This document shows positions 8,962-43,078 of a stretch of DNA of 43,078 nt, one piece after another (position 1 is the first letter of the stretch; each line of letters begins with the position of its first letter). The stretch is from a virus (lineage: Duplodnaviria; Caudoviricetes). The notes under the pieces were generated by a model, which worked only from the letters and a program-made list of their open reading frames with translations, searched no databases and had not been told where the DNA came from. Made by a program: the position numbers and the translations under genes. The stretch covers positions 1-43,078 of the IMG/VR virus record IMGVR_UViG_3300032291_000953. One strand, 5' to 3'.

Positions 8962-11900
8962 ATGGCTGATTTAAACGAGATGTTTTCTGCCTTAGAAAGG
9001 GCGGACGCTGCTGGTAATGTGGATGATGCAAAAGAAATTGCGGCGATGATTCGCCAGTTTAAAACACAACCAGTCATTCAACCATCTCAACCAGCAGTTC
9101 CTACAGATCCTAATTTTAAAGCTGGATTATTATCTGGCACAACCCTACCAGCAGATGCTGGCCCAGTAGGTAACCGCATGATTGAGGATGTAGGAACCCC
9201 GTTACCTATTACCAAAGAACTACCTAAGCTTGACGCATCTAAGATGCCAGTTGAGAGTAGGTTTGGGTCAGATTTTAGCAAGCTCTTAGCTGGTTCAGCA
9301 ATTCCAAGCGTTATAGGAACTCCTGAAGCTATTGAATCTGCAATAGTGCAACAGTCTAAATCTGCACTGCCAGCACCATCAGAACTCCTTGGCTACTTAT
9401 CTAGCCCAGACAAGCTAGCAAATAAGTTTGTTACCTCGTTAGGGTTTAAACCTATATTTGGTGAAGAAACCAAGGGACTAATACCAGAGGAAGCACTAAA
9501 GGTACAACAAAGAGCGATTGATGAGGTTAGGGCTAAAGGTAAGTCTCAGACATTGAAAGACATTACTGAGTTTGGTAACAAGCTTGGTAAAGACATTAAC
9601 GCTACAGTTTCTCCAGAGATGCAGTTAGCAATGGCTAACTTTACTCCAACTGGATCGCTATCTGATTTAGCCCGTGGAAATCTTGATAAGCTCAGCTTTG
9701 GTAAAGATCCTTCTTTGCAAGGATTAGCTGGTCAATTTGCTAGTGTTTTTGGTTCTATCATGCCTGGCATGCTTGGCACAATCATCACTAAAGACCCAAG
9801 ATATATGACCACCTTTGGGTTTGGTCAAGCTGGATCAGAAGCAGTAAACAATGCTCGTCAATATATTGGTTCGCTTAATGACCAACAGTTGGCAAAAAAT
9901 AGCCCGTACTTTAAAGATTTAATACAGGCAGGATACGACCCTAAAACTGCTAGAGCAATGACAGAAGAGAAGGCGGTTGATACTGCCGCTACTGCACAAG
10001 GTGTGGTTGGTATGCTGGGTGGTGACTTTACCGCTAAGTTAATTACTGGTAAGTTTGATAAGCTATTGCTTTCATCCATTCAGAACCGTGCCTTAAACAT
10101 CCTTGCTAGAACAGGTAAAGGGATAGTTGCTGGCGGTACTGAAGAAGGTATACAGGAGCTGGTAGAAGGTATTGCTAGCGATCTGGCTATTGACAAGACC
10201 GTAGCCAAGGAAATTGGTGCTGATGCCTTTGCTAACCTAGTATTGGGTGCTCTCGGTGGTGGTGGTCCAGGCGGTGTGCGTGGAGCTATTGCTACAGGCG
10301 AAGTCCCTAAGACTGCACCAGAAGCTCCACAAGCTCGTAAAGAGCCACGGTTGGCACCAGAAGCTATCCAGCCACAAGAAGTCGCTCCTATGCCCGCTGC
10401 TGAAGCCGTTGCTCCAGAGGCTCCAATCGTTGCCCAAGAAGCAACACCAGCAATCCCTGTACCACCAGAGACTATCCAGCAAGATACTGGGGCTTTGGAT
10501 AAACAATTTATGTTGTCCGAGTTAGATGATAATCCGCAAGAAGTTATTAAAAAAGCCATTGAGAATCCAGCAAGTCCTGAAGGGCAAGTACTGGAAAACA
10601 TTGAACGCAAGCAAACAGCAACTCCTCAATTCAAACAATGGTTTGGTGACTCTAAGGTTAAGGATGAAGCTGGCAAGCCATTAGTTGTTTATCATGGAAC
10701 AACACAAGACATTAAATCGTTTGATCCATCCAAATCATTTGGGGATCTTGGTGCATCGTTTTTTACAGAAGACCCTAAATTTGCTTCTTCCTATGATTAC
10801 ACACAAGGTAAAGGAAATGTTCTTCCTGTTTATTTAAGTGCAAATAATATATTTGATTTTGGCAACAAAGAACAAAGGGATTCATTAAGACAAGCTGCTT
10901 CTAAAATTGAAATTAGAGATCCAGTTCGTGGATTTACAACGTTAGATACTAAGATTCCAAATAGTGAGCAATATTTTGATACAGAACATCCAGAAGTTTT
11001 TAAGCTAATCAAAGACCTTGGCTATGATGGCGTTAAGCTAAAAGAACGTGATGTAACAAACTATGCCGTCTTTAATCCAACACAAATTAAATCTGCTATT
11101 GGTAATACTGGTGCATTTAGTTCTGAGAGCGCTGACATTACAGAAAACATTAGCCCTAAGTACATTGTTCCCACCTCAGCCTTTGGAAAAGATATAGAAC
11201 GCACTCCTTCTTTCAGAACAGAAACAAAACGTCTTGATAAGATGTTTAAAAAAGGCAGGATATCCTCTGACATTGTGGCAAACCAACTTGGTCAGTTATT
11301 GGAAGATACAAAGAAAACCAAAGCATCTAAGCCATTAGTTCGTGGTGCTAACAATGTTATAGAAAGATTAAACAGAGCTGCTCGTAAAAAAGAGATCTCT
11401 CCAGAAGGCGCACAACTAGCAACTTGGTTTCTAAGTAAAAACCCTAACCTTGCTAATGATCTAGCTATATCTATACAAAAGCCCGGAGACAATACTCCTT
11501 CTGGCAACTATCTTCCATCAAATCGTTTGGTAACTTTGTTTAAAGAGTCTCCTGAAGATGAGACTGCAGTGCATGAAATATTGCACCACACCGAAAGAAT
11601 GATGCCTCAGAATGTACAGATCGGCATTCGTAAGGCTTGGTTTAAGAGTTTTTCAAGTGCGCTTACAAAGGCTATGAACGGTTCAGACAAGAACTTACAA
11701 GACTATTTTGACAATCTTTTAAAGATGCATTTTGATAACGATCAGACTGCTGGCAAAAAAGCAAAAGCTCTTATAGGTGATGGATCTGTAGATATCTCTA
11801 ACTACCAATACTATAACCCTTCGGAATTTTGGGCTGTTAATGCTACGGATATTGTTGCTGGTAGGTTTGAGGGCAACAAGTCTTTCCTTGCAAAACTTAA

Positions 11901-14817
11901 GCAATGGCTAAAAGAATTTTCTGAAACAATAAAATCAGTCTTTGGTTTAGACTCTACAGCTCCAGTCATTCGTGCCTTAGATAGCTTATATAAGGCTGAT
12001 GGGCAATATAAGAGCGGAGTCATGTTGTCTCGTGGCACTAAGTTTGAAAACATTAAGCGTACATTTAAAGCTAAAGGCACTGGTCAAGAAGTATCTCCAG
12101 AAAAAACTCCAGAGCTTTACTCTTGGTCTATGCCTGAAAGAGAAGACTTAGTTCTCGGCTACAAAAAAGATGACTTGATGTATCAATTCTTGGACAAGCA
12201 GATTGATACCAAACAAATGCAAGAAGCTATCCTAAAAGCTAAAAGAAAGATTGACGATAACTTTAATGCTTATCAGAAAGAAACTCTTTATCACGGTAAG
12301 GTAGCTGCCAAGACTGGTGACTTCCTCAAGGGCGATGTATTAACGCTTGTTCGTGATATGAACAAAGCTGACATTACTTTAGAGCAGTTAGAAGAGTATC
12401 TGCATATGAACCACGCTGAAGAGCGTAACGATAAAATGAATGAGCGTAATGTAGGTAACGCTAATTTACAAGATCGTGGCTCTGGTGTTTCAACAAAAGA
12501 GGCTGAAGAATACTTTAAGAAGCTTTCTAAAGAAGAGAAAGCTAAGCTTGAGCCATTAGCCAAACAGGTCTATGACATCATCAATGAAACTCAGGATATC
12601 TTGGTTCGTTCTGGTGCTGAAGAGAAGGGCTTGATTGATACATGGCGTAAGACATACAAGAAGTATGTTCCTTTGTTTCGTGAAGACGATGACTTTGTAA
12701 GCCCTCCTGGTACACAGATGGGTTCTGGATTCCGTGTACAAGGCGCTACAAGCAAGCGAGCTACTGGTTCTACCAAAAAAGTATCTAACATTCTAGGTAA
12801 CATTATTTCCCAGCGTGAACGAGCTATTGTTCGTGAAGAGAAGATGAAGGTTGGTCGTGCGCTATATGGCATGGCTATTCAACATCCAAATCCTGACTTT
12901 TGGTTTGCGTTTAACCCTGATGCGGTTAAAAGCAAAAAAGCAGCAATTGAAGAGCTGAAGAAGTTCGGTGTTAAAGATGCAGAAAATGTAATGAATTTAA
13001 TGGAGGCTCCACGCACTCCATACATTGACGAAGCTACTGGTCAAGTCGGCTATCGTTTAAGCCCGATCACATTACAACAGCATAACGCTTTCCCAGTTCG
13101 TATCAATGGTAAAGATCGTTACATTTTCTTTAACCAAAGCAATCCTCAAGCTTTGCGCATGGCAAAGACTTTAAGTGAGATTGATACTGACAAGCTAGAT
13201 GCTATCTCTAATGCGGTTGGTAAGTTGACTCATTGGTTAGCAGCCGTCAACACTCAGTACAACCCAGTATTCGGTGTAGTCAACTTGATTCGTGACGTTA
13301 AAGGTGCAATGTATAACCTTACAACTACCGAATTAGCTGGCAAGCAAAAGGAAGTAGCAGCGCAAGTCATGCCTTCTATGAACACTATTCGTAAGGTGTT
13401 ATACGCTGAGCGTAATGGTAAACCCTTACCAGATGATGATGATGCCAAGTTGTTTATTCAGTTTAGAGATGATGGCGGTCAGACTGGATACAGAGATGTA
13501 TTAATGCGTCAAAAGGAAGAGGAACAATTAGTTGCTCAAGAATTACGCAAGATTCAAGATCCTGCAATTAAGCGTCAAGCTAGACACATTGTTCGTGCAT
13601 TGTCTGATTTTAATGACACCATGGAAAACTCTGTGCGTTTTGCAGCGTACAAGATTGCTATTAAACCAACATCTGAAGGTGGTAGTGGTTTATCTAGGGA
13701 CAAAGCCGCTTACATTGCTAAAGAACTAACAGTTAACTTTGACCGTAAAGGTAACTTAAACCGCCGCATTAACGCATATTTTGCATTCTTTAATGCAGCC
13801 ATTCGTGGTTCAGCCCGTATCTATGAAACATTAACAGGTCCTGCTGGTAAAAAGATTATGGCTGGTGGTGTAGGACTAGGCGTTTTACAAGCCGCTATGT
13901 TAGCTGGATATCCAGATGATGACCCTCCTGAGTTTGTGCGTGAGCGTAACTTTATTATTCCTGTACCAGGCACTAAGCAGATGTTTACTATTCCTTATCC
14001 ATTGGGCTACCATGTATTCCCAGGATTAGGGCGCATTACTACTGAGTTTATGTTTGGTGATCGCAAGATTGGTAAAGCAGTAACCGATGCATTAAGTATG
14101 TTTGCTGAGGCATTCAACCCATTAGGCGGTGGCAGCTTAGGTTGGCAGACAGTTGCTCCAACAGTCTTAAAGTTACCAGCACAAGTAGCTCAGAATAAAG
14201 ATACTTTTGGGCGCCCAATTTACAGGGAAGATCGTGCAACTCAACCAACTCCTGGCTATTTGCGTTCTCGTGATACTGCTAGCACTGTAAGTAAGTTTAT
14301 ATCTGAAGCGCTGAACTATATGTCTGGTGGAACCAAGTACAAGAAAGGCGCTATTAGTCCTACTGCAGACGAGATTGATTTCTATGCTGGTCAAATTACT
14401 GGTGGTGTAGGTCGTGAGCTTGCTAAGACTAAAAGTTTAATTACCAACTTAATTACTGGTGAAGAAACACCTTCATATCGCATTCCTTTAGTCGGTCGAT
14501 TCTATGCCGATGTAGATACCAACGCATCTAAAACTCAGCGTTTCTATAACAATGTTGTAGAGATGTCTAATCATGAGCAAGAAATTAAAGGTCGTCAAAA
14601 GAATCGTGAGAATGTTTCTGATTATATGAAAGAGCATCCAGAAGCTAGGCTTTGGCAACAGGCCAATAACATTGAGAATCAATTGAGTGCTATTAAAAAA
14701 GAACGCAAGGCATTAAAAGAACGTGGTGCATCTGAAGACTTGATTAAACGCAAAAATGATCAAATGATTCGTTTAATGGATAACTTTAATAATCAAGTTG
14801 AAAAAGCTAAAAAATAG
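8962..14817 (+). CDS. Large polyvalent internal virion protein (ART-like, zincin and LPD38-like domains)
   Basis: TPQFKQWFGDSKV...PLVVYHGT (ART-PolyVal-like), VHEILHH...SEFWA (metallopeptidase), and C-terminal TVNFDRKG...FFNAAIRG...IPYPLG (LPD38-like). Confidence 0.75.
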   Translation: MADLNEMFSALERADAAGNVDDAKEIAAMIRQFKTQPVIQPSQPAVPTDPNFKAGLLSGTTLPADAGPVGNRMIEDVGTPLPITKELPKLDASKMPVESRFGSDFSKLLAGSAIPSVIGTPEAIESAIVQQSKSALPAPSELLGYLSSPDKLANKFVTSLGFKPIFGEETKGLIPEEALKVQQRAIDEVRAKGKSQTLKDITEFGNKLGKDINATVSPEMQLAMANFTPTGSLSDLARGNLDKLSFGKDPSLQGLAGQFASVFGSIMPGMLGTIITKDPRYMTTFGFGQAGSEAVNNARQYIGSLNDQQLAKNSPYFKDLIQAGYDPKTARAMTEEKAVDTAATAQGVVGMLGGDFTAKLITGKFDKLLLSSIQNRALNILARTGKGIVAGGTEEGIQELVEGIASDLAIDKTVAKEIGADAFANLVLGALGGGGPGGVRGAIATGEVPKTAPEAPQARKEPRLAPEAIQPQEVAPMPAAEAVAPEAPIVAQEATPAIPVPPETIQQDTGALDKQFMLSELDDNPQEVIKKAIENPASPEGQVLENIERKQTATPQFKQWFGDSKVKDEAGKPLVVYHGTTQDIKSFDPSKSFGDLGASFFTEDPKFASSYDYTQGKGNVLPVYLSANNIFDFGNKEQRDSLRQAASKIEIRDPVRGFTTLDTKIPNSEQYFDTEHPEVFKLIKDLGYDGVKLKERDVTNYAVFNPTQIKSAIGNTGAFSSESADITENISPKYIVPTSAFGKDIERTPSFRTETKRLDKMFKKGRISSDIVANQLGQLLEDTKKTKASKPLVRGANNVIERLNRAARKKEISPEGAQLATWFLSKNPNLANDLAISIQKPGDNTPSGNYLPSNRLVTLFKESPEDETAVHEILHHTERMMPQNVQIGIRKAWFKSFSSALTKAMNGSDKNLQDYFDNLLKMHFDNDQTAGKKAKALIGDGSVDISNYQYYNPSEFWAVNATDIVAGRFEGNKSFLAKLKQWLKEFSETIKSVFGLDSTAPVIRALDSLYKADGQYKSGVMLSRGTKFENIKRTFKAKGTGQEVSPEKTPELYSWSMPEREDLVLGYKKDDLMYQFLDKQIDTKQMQEAILKAKRKIDDNFNAYQKETLYHGKVAAKTGDFLKGDVLTLVRDMNKADITLEQLEEYLHMNHAEERNDKMNERNVGNANLQDRGSGVSTKEAEEYFKKLSKEEKAKLEPLAKQVYDIINETQDILVRSGAEEKGLIDTWRKTYKKYVPLFREDDDFVSPPGTQMGSGFRVQGATSKRATGSTKKVSNILGNIISQRERAIVREEKMKVGRALYGMAIQHPNPDFWFAFNPDAVKSKKAAIEELKKFGVKDAENVMNLMEAPRTPYIDEATGQVGYRLSPITLQQHNAFPVRINGKDRYIFFNQSNPQALRMAKTLSEIDTDKLDAISNAVGKLTHWLAAVNTQYNPVFGVVNLIRDVKGAMYNLTTTELAGKQKEVAAQVMPSMNTIRKVLYAERNGKPLPDDDDAKLFIQFRDDGGQTGYRDVLMRQKEEEQLVAQELRKIQDPAIKRQARHIVRALSDFNDTMENSVRFAAYKIAIKPTSEGGSGLSRDKAAYIAKELTVNFDRKGNLNRRINAYFAFFNAAIRGSARIYETLTGPAGKKIMAGGVGLGVLQAAMLAGYPDDDPPEFVRERNFIIPVPGTKQMFTIPYPLGYHVFPGLGRITTEFMFGDRKIGKAVTDALSMFAEAFNPLGGGSLGWQTVAPTVLKLPAQVAQNKDTFGRPIYREDRATQPTPGYLRSRDTASTVSKFISEALNYMSGGTKYKKGAISPTADEIDFYAGQITGGVGRELAKTKSLITNLITGEETPSYRIPLVGRFYADVDTNASKTQRFYNNVVEMSNHEQEIKGRQKNRENVSDYMKEHPEARLWQQANNIENQLSAIKKERKALKERGASEDLIKRKNDQMIRLMDNFNNQVEKAKK

Positions 14818-21571: not shown

Positions 21572-22006
21572 CTAAGAAAGCTGTGCAAATTGAAAGCGTT
21601 TTTTAGGAACATTATAAAAATATTCGCCTTCTTTAACATTGCAGTTAGGGTTCTCAACCAAATCACAGTTGGTAATTTGATTGGTATTAATCCACAAGGC
21701 TTTAGTAAAGTTTTTATTAACTACAAAGTAGATTGTTGGCAAGTCGTTATCAAATAGCTTTGCCTTGCGTTCTGGAATATGTACCGTCTCAAATGGAAAC
21801 TCCCATCGAAATGAAGGCCTTACTTCTACTTCTACATAAATCTTATTTTTACCATTTCTAGTACAAATAAGATCTACTTCATACTTCTTATAGTCTTGAG
21901 CATACAAATCCCACTCCTTGCTAAGAAACCGTTTAACAGCTTCTCTACCAGGAGTATCGTACTTGTCGCTAAGCGACTGTTCGTAAGGTTTGTAAGCGCC
22001 AATCAT
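21572..22006 (-). CDS. PD-(D/E)XK-fold nuclease-like protein
   Basis: VDL...YVEVEVR pattern. Confidence 0.55.
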   Translation of the reverse strand: MIGAYKPYEQSLSDKYDTPGREAVKRFLSKEWDLYAQDYKKYEVDLICTRNGKNKIYVEVEVRPSFRWEFPFETVHIPERKAKLFDNDLPTIYFVVNKNFTKALWINTNQITNCDLVENPNCNVKEGEYFYNVPKKRFQFAQLS

Positions 22007-22797
22007 TATGCAGATCTTGGTAACTGTCCACTAAAAGTATAGGTTCCAGTATGACCAAAGCTAGCCCAAGGAGCAGCGTAGACTTTAAAGCCAGCCTGCC
22101 GTGCAATTTTACAAAAATGATAATCTTCTGATAACAGGCGATTAGATTCTTCATCAATGCTTGTTGCAAAGAACTCTTTGATTATTTTAACTTCTCGTAC
22201 TGTGTCTACCGCATGGTACATATCGTTGGTATAACTTGGAACTTTGTCATCAAGAGCCTCAAACACCTTACGCTTAATTAGCATAAAGCCTGTACCACCG
22301 TTGGCAATCTCCATTGGCTCGTTAAGATTACCTGACTTAGTCTGTTCTCCATGAGGAAGGTTAACTACAAACGCCCCTGTATGGTTTTGTAATTGTTGAG
22401 GTGGCACACCACGCTTAACTGCCGCATCTACTTCTACCCAGTTGATTTCTTTCTTAGGGTATAGTCCGCAAATGATATCTACATCTGCATCCACCATGCG
22501 AGGAATGTCGGCAGGATTAAAGTTAATATCGGCATCAATAAACATTAAGTGAGTAGCGTCAGACTTAATAAAATCATATGCCATGCTATTTCTAGCACGA
22601 GTAATTAAAGACTCGTTCATCATAAAGCTGTAGTACATCTGTATATTGTTTTGCCCAAACACGCCTACGCACTGCATAACTGCAGAGGCATACATACCTG
22701 TACACATACCACCATACATCGGGGTAGCTACAAATAATGATGCTTTTGGTTTTTGTTGGACAAATGGTGCAATTTTTTTATCGTTTTTAAAACTCAT
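22006..22797 (-). CDS. GT-A fold glycosyltransferase-like protein
   Basis: VATPMYGG, ESLITRARN, FIDAD (DxD), GTGFMLI and LSEDY motifs. Confidence 0.75.
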   Translation of the reverse strand: MSFKNDKKIAPFVQQKPKASLFVATPMYGGMCTGMYASAVMQCVGVFGQNNIQMYYSFMMNESLITRARNSMAYDFIKSDATHLMFIDADINFNPADIPRMVDADVDIICGLYPKKEINWVEVDAAVKRGVPPQQLQNHTGAFVVNLPHGEQTKSGNLNEPMEIANGGTGFMLIKRKVFEALDDKVPSYTNDMYHAVDTVREVKIIKEFFATSIDEESNRLLSEDYHFCKIARQAGFKVYAAPWASFGHTGTYTFSGQLPRSA

Positions 22798-23058
22798 TTT
22801 GATTCCTTCTTTTGGTCAATATATTGTTTAAGTATACTTAATATGCCAGCCTCAACTAAAACAGCCAGTCCTTCTTTATCAAAATTGACTATGGCATCTG
22901 CTGATCCGTCCTCATATTCTTTAATTACTTCTAACTGGATTTCCATTAGTGTTCCCTGTGATAGTAATGTGTTGGGTTATTTAGCATTGATTGAATGGCT
23001 TGATCTACTGTATGGAACCAAGCTATATGCCAGCCGTCTTGTGTGTAGACCTTAAAGC

Positions 23059-23742
23059 TCACTTCTTTCTCCACGGGAGTTCTTCACCATAAGCTTTTTT
23101 CATAGCTTCGTTGCCTTCTCTAAACATGCCAAGTAATCTTTCGGGCGCTCGGTAATTAACCGTAGCCTCGCCTGTGCATCCGAAGGCAGGCAGAGCTGAT
23201 GCGGCAGCTTTATAGAATGGTCGGTCTGCGCCCCATTGACCGTAGAAATTATGTGCCACGTTAACCAAATAATCACGCCTAAAGCAATAGCAATTAGTAT
23301 CAACAAAGTTGAGTAAATGATCGTAAAACGTCGGGTATCTACCGAGTGATTCGCAATCATCATCAAGAACATATTGTCCTCGTTCATCACATATTCTCCT
23401 CAAGCTATAGGCCCACATTAGGTCTTTAGATTTAATTTTCTTAATCATGGTTTCTACATGATTTGGCTCGAACCAATTATCCTCATCCAAAAATAAGATG
23501 TAATCAGCGTTTACCATTAGTGGCATGGCGGCATAGACTCGGTGTCCATACCATCCGTTACCACCTACGTTTTCGGGCAATTCAATAATTTTTAATAAAT
23601 CTTTTGGTATGTATCCTTTTGCCTTTTCAACTCCATCCAATACAACTAAATGTTCAGTAGTCATTGTTTGATCTTTAACGCTTTGGATAGCTTTATATAC
23701 AGTATCTTTCCCAGTAGTTGGGGTGATGACCATTATCCGCAT
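23059..23742 (-). CDS. Glycosyltransferase family 2
   Basis: VITPT...AIQSVKDQT, VVLDG and FLDEDN motifs. Confidence 0.8.
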   Translation of the reverse strand: MRIMVITPTTGKDTVYKAIQSVKDQTMTTEHLVVLDGVEKAKGYIPKDLLKIIELPENVGGNGWYGHRVYAAMPLMVNADYILFLDEDNWFEPNHVETMIKKIKSKDLMWAYSLRRICDERGQYVLDDDCESLGRYPTFYDHLLNFVDTNCYCFRRDYLVNVAHNFYGQWGADRPFYKAAASALPAFGCTGEATVNYRAPERLLGMFREGNEAMKKAYGEELPWRKK

Positions 23743-23889
23743 GTCTTTATCTCCGAGTCACCACTCTTTTGAATGATGCAGTTGCCTTCCCAACGTGGGG
23801 TTTTCTTTTCCACAGGACAATCTTGGGCGGGGCTATCCCCCCAAAAGTAAATAGCTACAATGGCAAGAAGTAGGGCTATTATGATGTTC

Positions 23890-24759
23890 TTATACATTTA
23901 GCTCGGTCACATTCTCACAAGATTTGCAAATACTGCATTTGTTAAACCCATCTGCCTCATTTATTTCAATAAGGTCTAGTAAGGGTTTACCCTGAAAGAT
24001 CTCTTTATAAGTTTGATTTAATAGATTGCCGATAATATGCTTAAGGTTGTAATCCATACAACAAAGCACAACATCGCCATTAGGTAGCAGAACGTTACGA
24101 TCATAGAATGGGGTACTCCTACAGGTTAGTGGAAAGGTATTCATTGGAGTAATGCTGATGGCTTGACCGGCTACTTGTTCAGTATTCAAACTATCCGCCC
24201 GTGTATGTCCTTGCCAACCAGGAAGACGACCAATCATAGACTGAAGCTCTGGATGCACTAGACCTGAGCTATCCATTGTCATAGCACCAACGCCACAGGG
24301 AACATTGGTATGGGACATTACCGCAGCAGCGTACTGCCATTCCTCACTATTCTTCCAGCCTTTCATGTTGCCATTGGCATCAGGAAGGTGAAGCATAATG
24401 ACATCCACTTGGTTAGGATGGTCTTCCAAGACTTTACGGACTCGCTCAGGATCCGTCATTCCATACAAAGTGCTGTATATGGCAATGTTAAATCCCATGT
24501 ATAAAACGGTCTCTAGCATCTCCGTACAGTGTGGGTTAGCCCAAGGCTCAGACATCCCAGAAAAATCAATCCTAGTGCCTTTTGGAAGCTTTGAGAGTAC
24601 AGCAACCAAGTCTCTGGGTTGCATATACTTTTCGCTATCACCGTAACTATCCCGAAGATTCTCTTGCGGGCAAAAGGTACACATCAATGGGCAGCCGATC
24701 ATTGTCGTCAGCTCCATTACTGGGCCTTCAAAATGTTTAATGCCATACTTCTCTTTCAT
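23890..24759 (-). CDS. Radical SAM protein with SPASM/twitch domain
   Basis: CPLMCTFC (CxxxCxxC); C-terminal C...NGDVVLCCMD...IGNL...CSICKSC. Confidence 0.85.
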   Translation of the reverse strand: MKEKYGIKHFEGPVMELTTMIGCPLMCTFCPQENLRDSYGDSEKYMQPRDLVAVLSKLPKGTRIDFSGMSEPWANPHCTEMLETVLYMGFNIAIYSTLYGMTDPERVRKVLEDHPNQVDVIMLHLPDANGNMKGWKNSEEWQYAAAVMSHTNVPCGVGAMTMDSSGLVHPELQSMIGRLPGWQGHTRADSLNTEQVAGQAISITPMNTFPLTCRSTPFYDRNVLLPNGDVVLCCMDYNLKHIIGNLLNQTYKEIFQGKPLLDLIEINEADGFNKCSICKSCENVTELNV

Positions 24760-25478
24760 TTGTACATATCCTTTGGTAAGGGGCGGTCTGGTTTATCCAA
24801 GACATTTGGCATGTCTAATGGGTGTGGAAACTCTGTGCAAAATCCTGTAGCTGGCGAGCGATCTTTGCGTAAAAAGGTCAGCTCAAAGACGGTAGGCATT
24901 AGCAATCCATTAACATCAATGAATTGACAGTTATTGTTTGGATGGTTATGAACTACATGAAAGTCTTGTAATAATTTTTCAAAGAAAGTTTGAGCTACAC
25001 CCCAAGCAAGAGGGTTGTTAAACCAGTTCTGTACATCGTGTATTTCAATAGCCATCATTCTAAAATTACACAACACTTCGGATGGTGTACTTAGTATCGT
25101 TACGTATTCTGCGCCCTCAATATCCATCTGAAGAATCAAGTCATCACCAGAATAGGCATTACTCAATACCCAATCCGATAGGGTCATATAACCCTCTGTA
25201 TTGACTCCGTCTAAATACTTTTTAGTAAATGATGCTACCTCTAATTCGTTTGGTGGCCCATCTACTGATGCATCTGCAAGGTGAGACTTAATACCACGCT
25301 CAAGAAGATCTTTCTCAAAGCTGGCAGTCACATCTACGCCAGGCGAGAAACAGGCTGCAATGTCCTCTAAATCGTTTGGAATGAGATATCCGCCATCGTT
25401 ATTTCCGCCAATACGTACCAGCTCAAAGTTTGTTTTAACTGGATAAAGGGACACCAGCAGATCGTTTAGTTGATTCAT
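24756..25478 (-). CDS. FkbM-like SAM-dependent methyltransferase
   Basis: RIGGNNDGGY, SPGV...SFEKD, LQMDIEGAE and IEIH motifs. Confidence 0.75.
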   Translation of the reverse strand: MNQLNDLLVSLYPVKTNFELVRIGGNNDGGYLIPNDLEDIAACFSPGVDVTASFEKDLLERGIKSHLADASVDGPPNELEVASFTKKYLDGVNTEGYMTLSDWVLSNAYSGDDLILQMDIEGAEYVTILSTPSEVLCNFRMMAIEIHDVQNWFNNPLAWGVAQTFFEKLLQDFHVVHNHPNNNCQFIDVNGLLMPTVFELTFLRKDRSPATGFCTEFPHPLDMPNVLDKPDRPLPKDMYK

Positions 25479-25548
25479 TTATCTTGATTCTTTCTTATTG
25501 CCAATAAGATTTGTTTTAATAGCTTAAGAACTTCCTCTTCAAATTGTG

Positions 25549-26406
25549 TCATTGGACTATGTTCCTTACAAAATCTAATGCGTTATCAAGACTAGGCTCT
25601 TCCCACAGAAGCGGTTTAGTATACATAGCCTCGTAGAGTTCCTTGCTCTCATCAATAGCCTGAATGGTTGTAACAAACCAATTCATATCTTTGGTGTTCA
25701 TATAGTTTAAATAAGCACCTTCATGGAAATCACAGTCAGCCGACATCGTTCCGCTGTAGATAGGTATAGTACCGCCCGCATATGCGTCTAATAACTTCTC
25801 AGTTACATAGCCATCATAGATAGAGTTCTCAGGGCATAGGCAGAACTTATACTCAGGAAGGATGGAGAACTTAGATTCCCGTAATGAGTTGTTAAACATG
25901 TTGCCAAATCCATGTACGGGTTTATACCTAGATATAGAGTTGTACAAGTTAATGCGTAACCCTTCGGGATTGCCAGCAATCATGGCGCAGAACTTATCTT
26001 TCTTACTAGCATCTAGTACACGTGGCTGAACAAGCGGAGCAATCTCAATCAATGGTTCGTACCCATGATTATGGGCGTTTGCTCTGCGTGGCTTTTGTTC
26101 AAATCCGGGCCATGCTAACCGTGAGTACCATAGAGGTAATCGAAAATTACGTCCACCGTAACTGTCATAGTCAAAAGAAAGAGAATGGTCGTAGCCCATG
26201 TAGCTAGGTCGAATATTCTCTCCAATGTATGCAATAGTTTTTCGCTGATCATATTGAGCATTCCCAAAGACGGAGGTTACGATAAGGTCTGCATCATATG
26301 GGTTATCTGTGTATTCAAACCCACCTAATGCCCGTTGAAAGAAGTACTCAAAGAAGTCTCCATCAAAGCCACCTTCCCAAAAGTTAATGACGCATAACTT
26401 TTTCAT
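25549..26406 (-). CDS. Glycosyltransferase family 10 (alpha-1,3-fucosyltransferase-like)
   Basis: GENIRP and YKFCLCPENSIYDGYVTEKLLDAYAGGTIPIYSG fucosyltransferase motif. Confidence 0.85.
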   Translation of the reverse strand: MKKLCVINFWEGGFDGDFFEYFFQRALGGFEYTDNPYDADLIVTSVFGNAQYDQRKTIAYIGENIRPSYMGYDHSLSFDYDSYGGRNFRLPLWYSRLAWPGFEQKPRRANAHNHGYEPLIEIAPLVQPRVLDASKKDKFCAMIAGNPEGLRINLYNSISRYKPVHGFGNMFNNSLRESKFSILPEYKFCLCPENSIYDGYVTEKLLDAYAGGTIPIYSGTMSADCDFHEGAYLNYMNTKDMNWFVTTIQAIDESKELYEAMYTKPLLWEEPSLDNALDFVRNIVQ

Positions 26407-27095: not shown

Positions 27096-27181
27096 TCATT
27101 TCTCCTCTTTTGTTTAGACTATAATCACAGTTATGAATACAGTCAATACATCGTACCCACTTTAATGCAATTTATTTATTA

Positions 27182-27580
27182 GTGATTACCCTAAAGCTAC
27201 CTTACCCTTGTTCCGTTAACTCCTACTGGCTAACATCTGGTAAGAGGCGTTATATATCAAAGCGAGGCATGGCTTTTAAGGCGTCAGCAGCAGAAGCGTG
27301 TAGTGGATTAACTGGATTTGGAGCTGAACCAGTGGAAGTGTCAATCGTGTTGTATCCACGAGACAAAAGGCTTCTGGATATTGATAACATTTGTAAATGT
27401 ATTCTAGATTCGTTGCAAGGATACCTCTATGATGACGACCAACAGGTCTGGAAACTGACCGTTGAGCGGGCTGAAAAGATTAAGGGCGGTGGCTGTGATG
27501 TAACCATCAAGGAATACAGCAAGCATGGTTCTACTCTAACTGACCGCATGGCCAGTCTTATACAAGACTTAACCGATTAG
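27182..27580 (+). CDS. rusA: RusA-family Holliday junction resolvase
   Basis: LPYPCSVNSYW, DIDNICKCILDSL and DDDQQV motifs. Confidence 0.88.
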   Translation: MITLKLPYPCSVNSYWLTSGKRRYISKRGMAFKASAAEACSGLTGFGAEPVEVSIVLYPRDKRLLDIDNICKCILDSLQGYLYDDDQQVWKLTVERAEKIKGGGCDVTIKEYSKHGSTLTDRMASLIQDLTD

Positions 27581-28101
27581 GTGCGCTCTGCACTTTCATG
27601 CGGCATGAAGGCATGATGTCCTATTTTTGCATGACTTTTTATATAAATTTCATGCACTTACAAGCGTTTTTAAAATGGGTCGCCTATTATTAACATTGTG
27701 TATGTTAATCGTAAAAAAGTATGTTAGAAAAAGTTTCCCGAACGGGAATAATGTAAGAAAAAGTAGCATATATTACACAAAAATTCCCGAACGGGGCATT
27801 TTGTAAGTTTTAGTAAAGGATTCTTTAATAAGGCTTTAAGCTATTTAAAGACTCTTTAATAAGTCATTAAGCTGTCTACAACAAAGTAAATACAAAGCCA
27901 ATAACAAAGTAAATGTCTACAACTCTGTTGTTATGTATACTTTTTGACAATAAATGTACATATAGGCATCAATATGTATAAGCAATAGACATAACTTTAC
28001 AATCAGTTGGCAAAACTTTACAAAAGTGCATGAATTTTCAATAAATGATGCGTCTCATTCTTATTTAAAAGGTTCCGTTTGGGAACCTAGGGTAAACCCT
28101 T
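27554..28101. repeat. Array of heterogeneous paired direct/inverted motifs
   Basis: TTCCCGAACGGG x2, TCTTTAATAAG x2, AACAAAGTAAAT x2, TGTCTACAAC x2, ATGTAYA x3, AACTTTACAA x2 and TGCATGA inverted repeats; no ORF of 60 aa or more. Confidence 0.8.
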
Positions 28102-28114
28102 ATAACTATTAATA

Positions 28115-28130
28115 CTGTATGGATGTACAG
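28115..28130. promoter_or_regulatory. LexA (SOS) box
   Basis: CTGTATGGATGTACAG = CTGT-N8-ACAG, preceded by TA. Confidence 0.7.
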
Positions 28131-28160
28131 TTAGTATTACTTTTCCTCGGTAGGGTGTTT

Positions 28161-28195
28161 GGGGGTGGCATCACGGAGCCACTCCCATTTTTTTT
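28161..28195 (+). terminator. Rho-independent terminator
   Basis: GGGGGTGGC/GCCACTCCC stem followed by a T8 tract. Confidence 0.75.
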
Positions 28196-28228
28196 GCATC
28201 TGGTAAATTTACCACATAGGTGTATAAT

Positions 28229-28243
28229 TGTTGCAATGCAACA
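28229..28243. promoter_or_regulatory. Palindromic operator (PhaR-box-like) next to a -10 element
   Basis: TGTTGCA-A-TGCAACA perfect palindrome directly after TATAAT (28223-28228). Confidence 0.5.
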
Positions 28244-28263
28244 TAAACCAATAGGAGATAACC

Positions 28264-28371
28264 ATGTTTGATTTTGATAAGCAAATTAAAGAAGTAACCG
28301 CTCAGGTTAAGAAGTACAACGATATGTGGATTAACTGGACTATTACAGTTCTAGAACAAATCAAGAAGTAA
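28264..28371 (+). CDS. 35-aa amphipathic peptide (mini-phasin-like?)
   Basis: MFDFDKQIKEVTAQVKKYNDMWINWTITVLEQIKK with its own -10, RBS AGGAGA and a downstream hairpin. Confidence 0.6.
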   Translation: MFDFDKQIKEVTAQVKKYNDMWINWTITVLEQIKK

Positions 28372-28382
28372 TGGCGTAAGCC

Positions 28383-28413
28383 AAGGGGTGAGCAGAAACT
28401 GCTTGCCCCTTTT
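28383..28413 (+). terminator. Rho-independent terminator
   Basis: AAGGGGTGAGCAG-AAA-CTGCTTGCCCCTT hairpin followed by Ts. Confidence 0.65.
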
Positions 28414-28482
28414 GTATTTCGTGTTATAGTTTTACTAACAGAAGAAACTTTGGACGGTTGCTTTATGTTAGAATCAAACCTG

Positions 28483-28772
28483 AAGCCTCATACACATGGG
28501 GTCTGTCATAGTTTTCTTATGCTTGGTTCAGGGATTGACAAACATAAGCGAATGTCCAAAACAGACTCCAGTTGTATGGGGCTTTTTCTTTTGTGGTTTA
28601 TCCTGGACGGCAGAGAAACACCAGCGGGATAGATACAAGCGCTACTGGGGAAGTAGATGTAAGAGCGCAATATCGGTGGCGAAGCTTAGTGCCGATTCTA
28701 CGAACGACTGGCGAGTGCTGTGGCTCCGAAAGGTAACAGTTAAAGGCGCACTGCTAGGGCGTAGTGCGTCCA
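28483..28772 (+). ncRNA. Candidate structured RNA / leader upstream of the replication genes
   Basis: Long hairpin 28483-28584 followed by a multi-stem domain with a CC-GAAA-GG tetraloop; many G-U pairs on the + strand. Confidence 0.45.
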
Positions 28773-28819
28773 CCAAAAGGTAACATGGGCTTACGTAAGA
28801 AAGCAATAGAAAGAGAGCA

Positions 28820-29005
28820 ATGGATTTACGAGAAGAAATAAAAAAGCAAGCTGGGGTAATCCCCGATGCGGTACAAAGAGGATCGGTGCAAACTACGATC
28901 AGGTGGAAAGAAAGAGCGATGAACGCTCTAAGAACTGCCAATAACCCTAAAGCAACCGAGCGAGAGCTAAAGACGGCCTTCGCTGAACTAATGAGGAATG
29001 TATGA
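28820..29005 (+). CDS. Hypothetical protein
   Basis: RBS-like GAGAG and ATGA coupling to the next gene. Confidence 0.6.
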   Translation: MDLREEIKKQAGVIPDAVQRGSVQTTIRWKERAMNALRTANNPKATERELKTAFAELMRNV

Positions 29006-29802
29006 AACTATCAGAAATTACACTTGACCCCGAACTTCAATCCCGTGAAACATTAAACCAGGATACGATCCATGATTATTCCGAGAAGATCAGAGAGGGA
29101 GTCAAATTCCCAGCCCTTAAGGTATACCGAGTTGGATCTCGCCATTATCTCGTTGATGGATGGCACCGTTACTTTGCTTATAAGAAGGCTGGCATAGTTG
29201 ATGTAGAAGTCATTATTGTTGATGGTACTAAGCGTGATGCTCTGCTGGCGTCAACTGGTGTTAACAAAGATCACGGTCTGCCACCAACTCGTGCTGATAG
29301 ACGCCGTGCAGTATTAAAATTACTGGACGACATGGAATGGTCTTTATGGAGTAACCGTGAGATCGCTGTTCAAACTGGCGTAACCCATCCTACAGTGATG
29401 GCTATTCGTGAATCTTTAGGTAAGCCACAACCTGAAGCAATTAAGTTTGAAAGAAACGGTAAAGAGTTTGAGCAGAAAGTAAAGTACAAAGATGAAGAAT
29501 CCTATTTACCAGCACCAGCCCCTGAAGAGGATAAACTCCATGAGCTGGCAACTGAAATTCAAGCCTTGGCTGAGGAGAACGAACGGCTCGAAGCCAGAGT
29601 TGCGGTCGCTGCTATGGAAGGTACGGCTACAGAGAAGGGGGCTGCTCAGGCTATCATTGAGGAGCTTCAAGCTACGGTTAAGAATCAGGAAATTGCAATC
29701 CGTTCATTAACCATTAGCCGTGATACTTTCCAAAATAAATGCTCTGAATTAATGAAGCAAGTTACTTACTGGAAAAAGCAAGCACAAAAAATGGCAGCGT
29801 AA
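29002..29802 (+). CDS. ParB/Srx-like N-terminal domain protein with HTH and coiled coil
   Basis: YLVDGWHRYFA motif and WSNREIAVQTGVTHPTV HTH. Confidence 0.8.
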   Translation: MKLSEITLDPELQSRETLNQDTIHDYSEKIREGVKFPALKVYRVGSRHYLVDGWHRYFAYKKAGIVDVEVIIVDGTKRDALLASTGVNKDHGLPPTRADRRRAVLKLLDDMEWSLWSNREIAVQTGVTHPTVMAIRESLGKPQPEAIKFERNGKEFEQKVKYKDEESYLPAPAPEEDKLHELATEIQALAEENERLEARVAVAAMEGTATEKGAAQAIIEELQATVKNQEIAIRSLTISRDTFQNKCSELMKQVTYWKKQAQKMAA

Positions 29803-37846: not shown

Positions 37847-38414
37847 AATTTCTCCTCTTTGCAATACATTGATAAAAACTACATATTGATAATATACACC
37901 CAAACCAAAGTCAAGGGCAATTCCCGACTAAAGTTTGGGGTTATTACTCAAAGGCCCTACTTATTCGCCCGACTCCTTTTGATCAAACAAAGCCTTGACG
38001 ATGCAATCAGCCATGATCAATTTGCTATGAGTAGGCAACTCTGGGAAGTACTCAACTACATAGGCATAAGCCATCTTTAAGCGAATCTCTGAGCGGTCTT
38101 CTATTACTGGGTTTTGTGTGTTTGTATCCAAGATGTTTAATCTCCATTAGGTTTAAAAGGTGCTACATACATAAGACGATCGACTTGCCAATTACTTAGG
38201 GTCAATCCTCTTATCTATAAAGACGAGCAAGAATGGAAAAGGTCAGGGTAAGCCTTGAAATAAATTTTGCTGCCGAGCAAATGGCAAACGAAAAAGCCCG
38301 ATAGCCTTACTGGAGAACGGCTTAGATACTTATGCAGTAGGAGAGAAGAGAGAGCATAGGAGACTTACTTAGGCATGAGAGTCCACAGAAAAACAAAGCA
38401 TCGCCTTTTAAGTA

Positions 38415-38462
38415 CTGTACATTTATACAGCTTAGCCAGGAAAGCACTGTATACATATACAG
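38415..38462. promoter_or_regulatory. Tandem LexA (SOS) boxes upstream of terS
   Basis: CTGTACATTTATACAG (38415-38430) and CTGTATACATATACAG (38447-38462). Confidence 0.8.
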
Positions 38463-39305: not shown

Positions 39306-39497
39306 TTGAGTAAAGAGATAGATAACATCGTTAGAAAACAAGTGGAAAGAGACTTGGAAAAGTTCTACGCTATGAGTGAAGCAGATAAAGATGCCTATAT
39401 GGATAAGCTTCTACAAGACATGGAAGCTGGTAAACAAGCATCTGCTGAGATTCATACAGAAGCTCTAATCAAACGTTGTAGGGGTTTGAATGACTGA
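39306..39497 (+). CDS. Hypothetical protein
   Basis: Fills the gap between terS and the LexA-like gene; TTG start. Confidence 0.45.
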   Translation: MSKEIDNIVRKQVERDLEKFYAMSEADKDAYMDKLLQDMEAGKQASAEIHTEALIKRCRGLND

Positions 39498-39720
39498 GCG
39501 CCAGGCAATCGTTTACGAGATGATTGACGAATGGTGGAAAAAGTTTGGCTATGCGCCCTCTATAGATGATGTGATGCAACAGACCAAATTTAAGGGTAGG
39601 GGGCATACTCATAGAATCATGAAGCAACTCTGTGATCTGGGTCACTGTAAGAGACTTCCAAATCGGGCGAGAAGTATTAGACCGTCCTATATCCGTGTTC
39701 ATAAGCTAGAGATCGCATGA
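39490..39720 (+). CDS. LexA N-terminal DNA-binding-domain-like protein (no peptidase domain)
   Basis: MTERQAIVYEMI...GYAPSIDDV...KRLPNRARSI. Confidence 0.75.
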   Translation: MTERQAIVYEMIDEWWKKFGYAPSIDDVMQQTKFKGRGHTHRIMKQLCDLGHCKRLPNRARSIRPSYIRVHKLEIA

Positions 39721-41212: not shown

Positions 41213-43078
41213 ATGGCCATTGATAAAGCACTATACCAAGCCCCAGTCGGAATCGACGCACTGGCAGAACAAGAACCTGATATGGAGATCGAGATTGTAG
41301 ATCCCGAATCAGTAACAATCGGTATAGATGGACTCGAAATTGAGATCGAACCAACCGAAGAAGGTGAAGATGACTTTGATGCCAACTTAGCTGAATTCAT
41401 GGATGAAGGTGAATTGTCTTCTATCGCTGGTGATTTGATCGGAGATTATGACAATGACATCTCTTCTCGTAAAGATTGGATTCAAACCTATGTTGACGGT
41501 TTAGAACTTCTTGGTCTAAAGATCGAAGAAAGAACTGAACCATGGGAAGGTGCTTGCGGAGTCTATCATCCACTTCTATCTGAAGCAGTAGTGAAGTTCC
41601 AAGCAGAAACCATGATGTCTACTTTCCCAGCTTCTGGTCCTGTAAAGACTCAGATTATTGGTAAAGAAACATCAGAAAAGAAAGATGCTGCTGAACGAGT
41701 AACGGCTGATATGAACTATCAGTTGACCGATGTAATGCAAGAATATCGCCCTGAGCATGAGCGTATGTTATGGAGCTTAGGTATTGCTGGTAACGCATTT
41801 AAGAAGGTGTACTTTGACCCTTCCTTAAATCGCCAAGTGTCAATGTTTGTTCCTGCCGAAGACATCGTGGTACCTTACGGCGCTTCAAACCTTGAGTCGG
41901 CAGAGCGTGTAACCCATGTTATGCGCAAGACTGAAAATGATTTACTCCGATTACAGCATTCGGGTTTCTACCGAGATATCGACTTAGGAACACCAGATAA
42001 TGTATTAGATGAAGTAGAGAAGAAGATTGCAGAAAAGCTTGGCTTTAGAGCAACTTCGGATGACCGCTACAAAGTATTGGAAATGCATGTTAATTTAGAT
42101 TTAACTGGTTACGAGCATACCGATGACGAAGGTGAACCTACTGGTATCGCCCTTCCCTATGTAGTAACAATCGAAAAAGGATCGAATACGATTTTAGCGA
42201 TCCGCAGAAATTGGAACCCAGATGATGAGACTAATAAAAAGCGTCAGCACTTTGTTCACTACGGGTATATTCCCGGCTTTGGTTTTTACTGTTTTGGCCT
42301 TATCCATCTTATCGGCGCTTTTGCTAAATCTGGTACTTCCATTTTGCGCCAACTCGTTGATGCAGGATCACTCTCGAATTTGCCAGGTGGCTTTAAGACC
42401 CGTGGATTGCGAGTCAAAGGTGATGACACACCGATAGCCCCAGGTGAGTTCCGTGATGTAGACGTTCCATCAGGCACGATGAAAGATAACATCATGCCGT
42501 TGCCATACAAAGAACCGTCAATGGTTTTGGCTGGATTGCTTGATAAGATTGTTGACGAAGGTCGTCGCTTTGCTTCTGCTTCCGATATGAAGGTTGCGGA
42601 TATGTCAGGGAATACCCCAGTAGGGACAACCCTTGCAATTCTAGAAAGAACTCTAAAAGTAATGTCTGCGGTACAAGCCCGTATTCATTATTCAATGAAA
42701 CAAGAGTTCAAGCTATTAAAGAAAATTATCGCTGACTACACTCCAGAAGAGTATAGCTATGAGCCTTCAGAGGGTCGCCGTTCTGCTAAGCGTTCTGACT
42801 ACGATGATGTTGATGTCATTCCAGTAAGCGATCCTAACGCAGCAACGATGAGTCAGAAGATTATGCAGTATCAAGCTGCTCTTCAGTTGGCTCAGTCTGC
42901 ACCTCAGCTTTACAACATGCCACTACTACATCGTCAGATGTTAGATGTTCTTGGTTTAAAGGATGCTAATAAATTAGTACCAATGCCAGACGACCAAAAA
43001 CCAAGAGATCCAATCTCTGAGAATATGGCTGCATTTAAGATGGAACCACTCAAGGCATTTATTTATCAAGACCATGAA
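41213..43078 (+). CDS. Portal protein (P22-like), 3' truncated
   Basis: Open from ATG 41213 to the window end: MAIDKALY...RTEPWEGACGVYHPLLSEAVVKFQA...AFKKVYFD; follows terL. Confidence 0.85.
   Translation, partial: MAIDKALYQAPVGIDALAEQEPDMEIEIVDPESVTIGIDGLEIEIEPTEEGEDDFDANLAEFMDEGELSSIAGDLIGDYDNDISSRKDWIQTYVDGLELLGLKIEERTEPWEGACGVYHPLLSEAVVKFQAETMMSTFPASGPVKTQIIGKETSEKKDAAERVTADMNYQLTDVMQEYRPEHERMLWSLGIAGNAFKKVYFDPSLNRQVSMFVPAEDIVVPYGASNLESAERVTHVMRKTENDLLRLQHSGFYRDIDLGTPDNVLDEVEKKIAEKLGFRATSDDRYKVLEMHVNLDLTGYEHTDDEGEPTGIALPYVVTIEKGSNTILAIRRNWNPDDETNKKRQHFVHYGYIPGFGFYCFGLIHLIGAFAKSGTSILRQLVDAGSLSNLPGGFKTRGLRVKGDDTPIAPGEFRDVDVPSGTMKDNIMPLPYKEPSMVLAGLLDKIVDEGRRFASASDMKVADMSGNTPVGTTLAILERTLKVMSAVQARIHYSMKQEFKLLKKIIADYTPEEYSYEPSEGRRSAKRSDYDDVDVIPVSDPNAATMSQKIMQYQAALQLAQSAPQLYNMPLLHRQMLDVLGLKDANKLVPMPDDQKPRDPISENMAAFKMEPLKAFIYQDHE

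Follow-up and report, generated by a model that had tools for sequence, protein, structure and literature searches.

Phages are known to answer host toxin-antitoxin (TA) systems with mimics of the antitoxin. Phage PhiTE carries pseudo-ToxI, non-coding DNA that copies an element of the ToxIN system and acts against abortive infection; it is an RNA antitoxin mimic of one type III system, with repeats that were expanded or captured by recombination (PMC3475682). Phage antitoxin mimics directed at DarTG are proteins and serve a single system (PMC11481870, PMC11825919). The anti-TA defences of phages that we found in the literature searched were all proteins or RNAs, each for one system. Here we describe a different type of element, an array of operator-like DNA modules in IMG/VR virus record IMGVR_UViG_3300032291_000953, whose 43,078 nucleotides (hereafter, the window) represent a tailed-phage fragment of about 68% of a genome. 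The array lies between a rusA-like gene (27182-27580) and an unlisted open reading frame (ORF) of 35 amino acid residues (28264-28371). Its core, about 450 bases long (27595-28045), appears to be assembled from near-copies of the DNA that precedes about eight TA-type loci in Polynucleobacter, and sequence comparison strongly supports this assignment.

The host side of such sites is described for several systems. Type II operons are repressed by the labile antitoxin that they encode (PMC7029023). Within complexes of HipA, HipB and operator, HipA is reported to dimerise, in what is presumed to be a locked state (PMC7029023, citing others). Operator DNA slows the degradation of Escherichia coli HipB by Lon, giving a half-life of more than 200 min (PMC3376134), and abiE is autoregulated by AbiEi (PMC7725324).

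Operator-like modules and their host counterparts

A sequence-only reading of the window, made by a model from the letters alone, had described the region 27554-28243 as many unrelated paired motifs that possibly form a DNA decoy or a host-sensing switchboard. The observation is confirmed, and the interpretation is partly supported. Every listed motif was found in its place in a position print-out. The region (GC content 0.33) holds nine palindromes (arm of at least 6, gap of at most 5) versus an average of 1.7 in 500 dinucleotide shuffles (standard deviation 1.35, maximum 7), and six direct repeats (at least 9 nucleotides, within 60 nucleotides) versus 0.34 (maximum 3). None of the 500 shuffles reached the palindrome or the repeat count, and no other 690-nucleotide segment of the 43 kb came near that motif density.

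A metagenome scan with the PhaR-box palindrome at the right-hand end of the region (28223-28243) yielded 118 loci; 118 neighbouring ORFs compared with Pfam included nine Phasin_2 members as well as polyhydroxybutyrate depolymerases and related genes. ParA/ParB probes from metagenome locus L203 led to genomes G737 and G651, which the source names of their proteins place in Polynucleobacter, a genus of abundant freshwater bacteria. Profiles built from the phage copies were run over the entire G737 genome, where only five of the 18 module profiles gave a clear signal. The yield in this single genome was weak because most of the partner loci are accessory: they are patchily distributed among Polynucleobacter, and of 46 genomes of the genus 21 have hipA and 25 have AbiEii. 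Searching these 46 genomes with the array DNA returned 12 rows at E ≤ 1e-3, from 10 genomes, and all 12 lie directly upstream of AbiE, hipBA, a DUF4325 gene or a gene pair encoding proteins of 341 and 252 residues. Seven of the rows place 27621-27660 before AbiEi-AbiEii, three place 27685-27729 before the 341/252-residue pair, one places a 21-bp-spaced repeat before the gene for a 346-residue ATPase-DUF4325 protein, and one belongs to hipBA. A non-coding control of the same length from the window gave no row at this threshold. Two array matches with E of about 0.002-0.003 (L504, L505) fall in coding DNA and were treated as chance.

We also assembled a set of upstream regions picked by family. 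Sixty hipA and AbiEii loci, not picked by similarity within their families, provided 52 upstream regions (eight were dropped), or 47 after dereplication. The array is matched at 31 bits or more by 15 of these 47 regions versus none of 718 ordinary G737 promoters; the control region and three shuffles matched 0 of 47, and the reversed array 1 of 47. Across the 43-kb window, 47 of the 50 host-upstream matches fall within the 526-bp array. Thirteen of the 60 queries had themselves been found with array DNA, and their exclusion leaves 27 of 29 matches in the 526 bp, whereas background queries run over the whole window placed 1 of 31 matches there.

Host matches sit immediately upstream of, or overlap the start of, a gene for a helix-turn-helix (HTH) antitoxin or regulator, and the spacing of two-site modules (31, 49, 23 and 21 bp) is kept between phage and host. 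The firmer partner loci are two hipBA types, AbiEi-AbiEii, a MarR-like/nucleotidyltransferase-like pair, Fic and HTH-ATPase-DUF4325; MmpAB, SoFic and two further AbiE types are weaker. No hipBA- or abiE-type genes occur among the 72 ORFs of the window. The earlier proposal that sites for many different host proteins were concatenated agrees with these results: most core modules match TA- or defence-type upstream DNA, one of the options it had named, and among host promoters they are enriched before TA-type operons.

Read from left to right, the core begins with a palindrome and 8-bp repeats (27595-27618), for which a weak, tentative match (20/27 identity, to the single locus L484) lies upstream of a gene pair encoding 96 and 109 residues, with no Pfam name. 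It is followed by a probable half-site (27614-27632) of a second AbiE type, 136-residue DUF6088 plus 325-residue AbiEii (31 bits to L525), fuller copies of which occur in L155, L162 and L185. An operator-like copy for the AbiEi (DUF6088)-AbiEii type IV TA operon occupies 27621-27660 (32-33/39 identity); this module is present at 7 of 30 AbiEii loci, and both proteins are named by Pfam and PADLOC. The next operator-like copy (27685-27729) corresponds to the 341/252-residue pair, with 29-33/41 identity to L474, L478 and L441. MarR matches of the 341-residue protein are below the cut-off; the 252-residue protein has no Pfam match and is nucleotidyltransferase-like by eye.

Two modules correspond to hipBA operons. 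The first (27730-27800) has two sites 49 bp apart and is an operator-like copy for hipB (83 residues)-hipA (429-431 residues), where the host counterpart has three sites at 49 bp ahead of hipB. Its profile scores 23-38 bits at 3 of 30 hipA loci (the best score in G737 is -9.7), and identity to the host is 24/30 in the sites versus 11-15/34 in the spacer. Nested in this spacer is a degenerate site (27763-27782; 16-17/24 in the window copy), whose better copies in relatives match a pair of 160-residue HTH protein and AbiEii, at 3 of 30 AbiEii loci. The second module (27814-27870), with two sites 31 bp apart, is an operator-like copy for a second hipBA type, defined by Pfam as a 113-118-residue HTH protein plus a 435-437-residue HipA (40-41/56 identity, ungapped). 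Its profile reaches 58.6 bits upstream of the HTH-hipA operon of G737, where the next independent site scores 0.4, and 42-67 bits at 13 of 30 hipA loci from 12 genomes. The same segment also resembles a SoFic-like upstream region (L485 overlap).

The remaining modules are related mostly to Fic and DUF4325 genes. A 23-bp-spaced repeat (27880 and 27903, within 27873-27923) is an operator-like copy for a 513-residue Fic protein (Pfam Fic; PADLOC SoFic weak), with 30-32/41 identity to L503 and L507, loci of two genomes among the weaker rows of the DNA search. A degenerate composite (27933-27986; 23-24/37 identity; 33 bits to L550 and L567) resembles DNA upstream of the genes for mobile mystery proteins A and B (MmpAB, HTH plus Fic) and that of a 349-residue SoFic-like gene as well; the type is stronger in relatives, and its MmpAB link (NCBIfam/Pfam) was found through a relative's array. 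The 21-bp-spaced repeat (27993-28024) is an operator-like copy for the 346-residue HTH-HATPase-DUF4325 gene (26-28/35 identity to L500-L502); in our reading the protein has an HTH, for which there is no Pfam match. The core closes with a half copy of the AbiEi-AbiEii site (28022-28045; 31-36 bits to L530, L533 and L546). A single G737 match had suggested an ahpC site here, and this candidate was dropped once the AbiE partners emerged.

These assignments revise the geometry of the earlier description. The spacings are those of the host operators, 49 and 23 bp among them, and therefore do not all correspond to whole helical turns. The 11-bp inverted repeat (27646/28024) that seemed to bracket the core is accounted for by a full AbiE-type operator, of which it forms the right arm, and by a further half-site, and the element at 28070, taken for a variant of that at 27735, is a palindrome of its own. 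The region is also not entirely non-coding, since the rusA reading frame covers the first palindrome (27554-27569); the region further contains a terminator (28160-28187) and ends at the promoter of the unlisted 35-residue ORF.

Several host loci flagged by the array are candidate defence loci: the 341/252-residue pair (L611 54-1837), HTH-ATPase-DUF4325 (L500-L502), the 513-residue Fic (L503, L507) and the 96/109-residue pair (L484 961-1555). For two other types the modules are found in other phage loci and not in the window, namely a 170/240-residue AbiE type (L534-L537, L539, L541; modules in L059-L061 and L148-L150) and a 418-residue hipBA type (L463, L467; module in L041).

Turnover in phages and the proposed decoy role

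A search with RusA yielded 45 viral loci. In relatives of the window, whole modules downstream of rusA come and go and change in order and orientation, while their internal spacing stays fixed, as the comparison suggested by the sequence-only reading would have it for a modular array. We scanned 185 phage loci, many of them overlapping, for module classes at a threshold of 34 bits or more. The window has eight classes (the SoFic-382 class overlaps a hipBA module), and, after duplicate loci of single contigs had been removed by eye, at least three operator classes occur in 25 other contigs, which together with the window make up 17 array types. Ten of the 25 contigs carry the array after rusA, 13 at the end of a metallophosphoesterase/SprT-like block, one before terminase and one elsewhere. 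A T7-like lysozyme-terminase region (L487, on a contig of G770) also has two array modules, the 49-bp pair and the 27685 module, and a LexA box about 6 kb away (L586, contig G770:C5).

The modules are trimmed to their sites and packed or overlapping, and nine phage copies of the 49-bp module agree more closely in their sites than in their spacer (0.93 vs 0.77). Genes converge with their 3' ends on the array from both sides in 8 of the 19 loci inspected, a layout that favours action in trans; one such stretch of DNA, L155 1400-2400, has no sigma-70-type promoter. Reordering, inversion and convergent layout show the independence of position and orientation that would be expected of a decoy, with L152, L190 and L487 as counter-examples.

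We consider it fairly probable that the core is a trans-acting multi-operator decoy, which would keep host toxins neutralised while the phage replicates. The host sites would be autorepression operators bound by the HTH protein of each locus, and the phage copies would bind the same proteins. Replication of the phage would put its copies in excess over the one operator in the chromosome; autorepression would be lifted and antitoxin production would continue, while antitoxin or toxin-antitoxin complexes would be held on DNA in protected form; toxin release, and hence abortive infection, would be delayed. Because operator-bound HipB is slower to decay and the locus is autorepressed, replicating phage DNA would both derepress and protect the antitoxin. 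Each system is present in only some host strains, and a phage would therefore carry sites for many. For the single-gene Fic and DUF4325 loci, a plain sink may fit better than an antitoxin top-up.

Several observations weigh against a decoy that protects the phage. The HipA and AbiEii families were picked after the first matches had indicated them. The 341/252-residue pair, the DUF4325 gene and the 96/109-residue pair appear TA-like by layout alone, the Polynucleobacter partner loci are putative anti-phage systems, and Polynucleobacter itself is the likely host as judged from array matches, not from infection or spacers. The 41-bp-spaced 10-mer (27873/27914) has no host partner in the genomes searched; a conserved element kept in relatives (28042-28065), which we take to be Fur-box-like, has none in G737 or in 51 genomes; a conserved palindrome (28070-28088), present in 8 of 41 rusA relatives, has none in G737, in the array DNA search or in 51 genomes; and the palindrome at 28201-28214 (5 of 41 relatives), presumably of GntR/FadR type, has no clear one in G737 or in 51 genomes. 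No TA-type module reaches 34 bits in 20 of the 41 rusA relatives, which weighs against a universal role. The array precedes promoters or gene starts in the window and in three other loci, L152, L190 and L487, where the genes concerned encode terminases. Finally, derepression yields toxin too, so that its net effect could go either way, above all where Fic or DUF4325 proteins are encoded by single-gene loci.

Arrays placed before promoters could act as cis sensors: host proteins bound there would adjust the next promoter or stop transcription from reading through, and the phage would thereby read the defence systems of its host. In the window the LexA box, the probable short RNA and the PhaR promoter all follow the array; in L487 the modules at 1445-1560 overlap the start codon of the small terminase gene; and phages are known to use host regulators in cis (PMC9437464). 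However, the order and orientation of the modules are free, the next promoter is up to about 500 bp away, and 8 of the 19 inspected loci have no gene start on either side. We regard this explanation of the core as unlikely. The sensing of host state proposed by the sequence-only reading would fit the right-hand end (LexA box, PhaR box and the palindrome at 28087) and not the core.

A decoy might instead unleash the toxins, stalling host growth or excluding competing phages. By general type II logic, titrating autorepressors raises toxin transcription as well (PMC7029023), and several targets are single-gene Fic or DUF4325 loci where no separate antitoxin was seen. On the other hand, operator DNA stabilises HipB, and the names given to the 72 ORFs of this incomplete genome include neither a phage RNA polymerase nor a toxin-bypass gene. 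The phage itself depends on translation, the process on which HipA and AbiEii act, and we rate toxin release as slightly less probable again. That the modules are functionless relics of recombination with host islands is improbable: their absence from 20 of 41 rusA relatives and the degenerate window copies of the 27763 and 27933-27986 types (16-17/24 and 23-24/37) would fit, but relics would hardly be trimmed to sites and packed, keep sites longer than spacers among phages, or form 17 array types at several genome positions, a T7-like phage included. An origin of replication, or a docking site for proteins that the phage encodes, is very improbable, although the region is AT-rich (GC 0.31 vs 0.42), near the cumulative GC-skew minimum and upstream of ParB-like and helicase genes, and four elements have no host partner. 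The core has many unrelated motifs instead of one iteron, host accessory loci account for most of its modules, relatives carry the array at other positions, and the skew turn coincides with a coding-strand switch.

Returning to the trans-acting decoy, we see about an even chance that the arrays represent a DNA-only counter-defence in the full sense: a modular, evolvable bank of operators for many TA and abortive-infection autorepressors, acting as a multicopy co-antitoxin, spread over at least two Polynucleobacter phage families and listing anti-phage host loci, unnamed ones included (the 341/252-residue pair, HTH-ATPase-DUF4325, the 513-residue Fic and MmpAB).

The right-hand end and the surrounding phage genome

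The right-hand end of the region, with its LexA box, PhaR box and 28087 palindrome, is likely to be ordinary cis control of a short RNA and the 35-residue ORF. The palindrome at 28087-28102 is the best kept of the region (25 of 41 rusA relatives), and 6 of its top 10 matches in G737 are intergenic versus 1.0 in controls. Sites of this type are found in G737 at etfB, tctC and acs/fumarase and also precede formate dehydrogenase and an oxalate/formate antiporter; they suggest a core-regulon site of some host regulator. Among 401 Gammaproteobacteria the palindrome was found in 10 genomes, below the reversed control. Three of the ten exact copies there (L139, L146, L147) are beside FixJ/NarL-like response regulators by eye, a lead to the regulator. 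The top G737 matches of the LexA-box profile (28115-28130) are umuD-umuC and recA, in agreement with the original call.

A probable short RNA with an intrinsic terminator (stem 28160-28187) is located at 28135-28198 on the plus strand. Its probable counterparts in relatives (L005 1800-1885, L009 4605-4690, L020 4458-4548, L021 4310-4400, L025 4580-4680) have two hairpins plus a terminator (z -3.8 to -5.9) and no Rfam match; their C-rich, anti-Shine-Dalgarno-like loops are complementary in sequence to ribosome-binding sites. One RNA run contained 5% of the words and three 151-nucleotide contigs at depth 4-5, and gave no evidence of transcription.

A -10 hexamer with a PhaR box directly after it (28223-28243, plus strand) leads into the conserved 35-residue ORF (28264-28371, plus strand), behind which is an intrinsic terminator (28383-28411, plus strand). 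All of the top 10 G737 matches of the PhaR-box profile are intergenic, versus 0.7 in controls, and include the promoters of two phasins and phaR; by eye, the window box fits 16/17 and 21/21 positions of two published consensus strings (PMC12849132, PMC12542648), so that the PhaR call of the sequence-only reading stands. The combination of -10 hexamer and PhaR box occurs at 49 viral loci, 46 of which have a homologous ORF of 35-46 residues behind it; this ORF family (L148-L196) comprises 158 clusters. The small ORF is inverted relative to rusA in L016, L019 and L024, and in PhaR-promoter phages the array lies downstream of it. We tried the 35-residue ORF as a phasin and rejected it (no Pfam match; 1.4% in hhalign to a host phasin). 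Further downstream, Rfam identifies a Betaproteobacteria-1 RNA at 28596-28716 on the plus strand (88.5 bits; 12 of 18 relatives); Rfam RF02932 was found in none of 151 genomes.

At the opposite end, the palindrome in the 3' end of rusA (27554-27569) matches a host GntR-UTRA operator of the tricarboxylic acid cycle. Five of the top 10 G737 matches of its profile are intergenic versus 1.4 in controls, and such sites occur at acnB, at mdh with a divergent GntR-UTRA gene, and at aceA, a pattern that makes it a candidate SdhR operator. Its presence may be incidental, and it is broken in two of six close relatives that align there (L005, L009).

PhaR boxes and palindrome stacks also occur elsewhere. 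A second family of ORFs, of 70-100 residues, is found behind PhaR boxes in phage-like metagenome contigs (L217, L222, L233, L274), divergent from a lysine/alanine/proline-rich ORF in three of the four loci. An unrelated phage contig (L264 2840-3230) has a palindrome stack of its own and a PhaR box beside terminase genes; its sites, which resemble Fur, LexA and parS sites, do not match the TA set at 34 bits or more.

The left flank of the array is the rusA-like resolvase gene (27182-27580, plus strand; PHROG/Pfam RusA), and the window further encodes ParB-like, helicase, primase, methylase and terminase proteins. The terminase is 52-58% identical to its best matches among sequenced phages, cultured phages have no DNA match to 27100-29800, and a helicase search of named genomes (seven loci) found no betaproteobacterial prophage. 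Other features of the window include a 1951-residue polyvalent protein with ART-PolyVal and LPD38 domains (8962-14817), a glycosyltransferase/radical-SAM block (22006-26406), a probable portal ORF that runs off the window end (41213-43078), two LexA-box-like sites, by eye, before the small terminase operon (38413-38460) and, just before the large terminase, a 76-residue ORF with a LexA DNA-binding domain (39490-39720). An ARAGORN call of tRNA-Thr within a structural ORF (4911-5008) is probably spurious.

Comparison with known systems

If the core acts as proposed, a gene-free strip of 30-70-bp modules addressing at least eight systems would be a new and cheap counter-defence, invisible to gene-based searches. 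The array makes it testable whether operator binding itself belongs to toxin control during infection. Each module would point to a host locus that phages were selected to engage, and the modules would offer a route to anti-phage systems among unnamed Polynucleobacter accessory genes. The mostly open-access literature that we searched contained no report of a phage-borne TA operator array, and a 2026 editorial on anti-defence (PMC13728456) mentions neither operators nor titration nor non-coding elements.

With PhiTE pseudo-ToxI (PMC3475682) the array shares non-coding phage DNA that copies host TA elements. Unlike it, the array holds DNA sites resembling operators of many type II, type IV and Fic-type loci, and its function is proposed from their matches. 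We rejected the array as an RNA mimic of the PhiTE kind: the modules are mutually unrelated and match upstream DNA, and there is no Rfam match in the array. With the DarTG mimics (PMC11481870, PMC11825919) it would share phage counter-defence against TA systems, whereas the array encodes no protein. The operators of hipBA and abiE promoters (PMC3376134, PMC7029023, PMC7725324) likewise have paired inverted repeats at fixed spacing before an HTH antitoxin gene, but in the 72 ORFs of the incomplete window the phage sites come without the genes. As in the PhaR-phaP circuit (PMC12849132, PMC12542648), a PhaR box stands beside the -10 hexamer of a small gene, although the phage ORF has 35 residues and is no demonstrable phasin.

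The sites for CtrA, LexA and Spo0A reported from phage genomes (PMC9437464) are host operators in intergenic DNA too, and the LexA and PhaR boxes of the array fit this pattern. They serve one global regulator in cis; the core, in contrast, combines sites of many accessory autorepressors; their order is free, and in many cases no promoter lies beside them. Its principle would be closest to that of transcription-factor decoys, where extra sites titrate a regulator in trans (PMC7826281, PMC8599769, PMC3322331). Known decoys are engineered or chromosomal and mostly bind one factor, whereas the array is natural, viral and multi-target; if the trans role holds, it would be a new kind of phage element.

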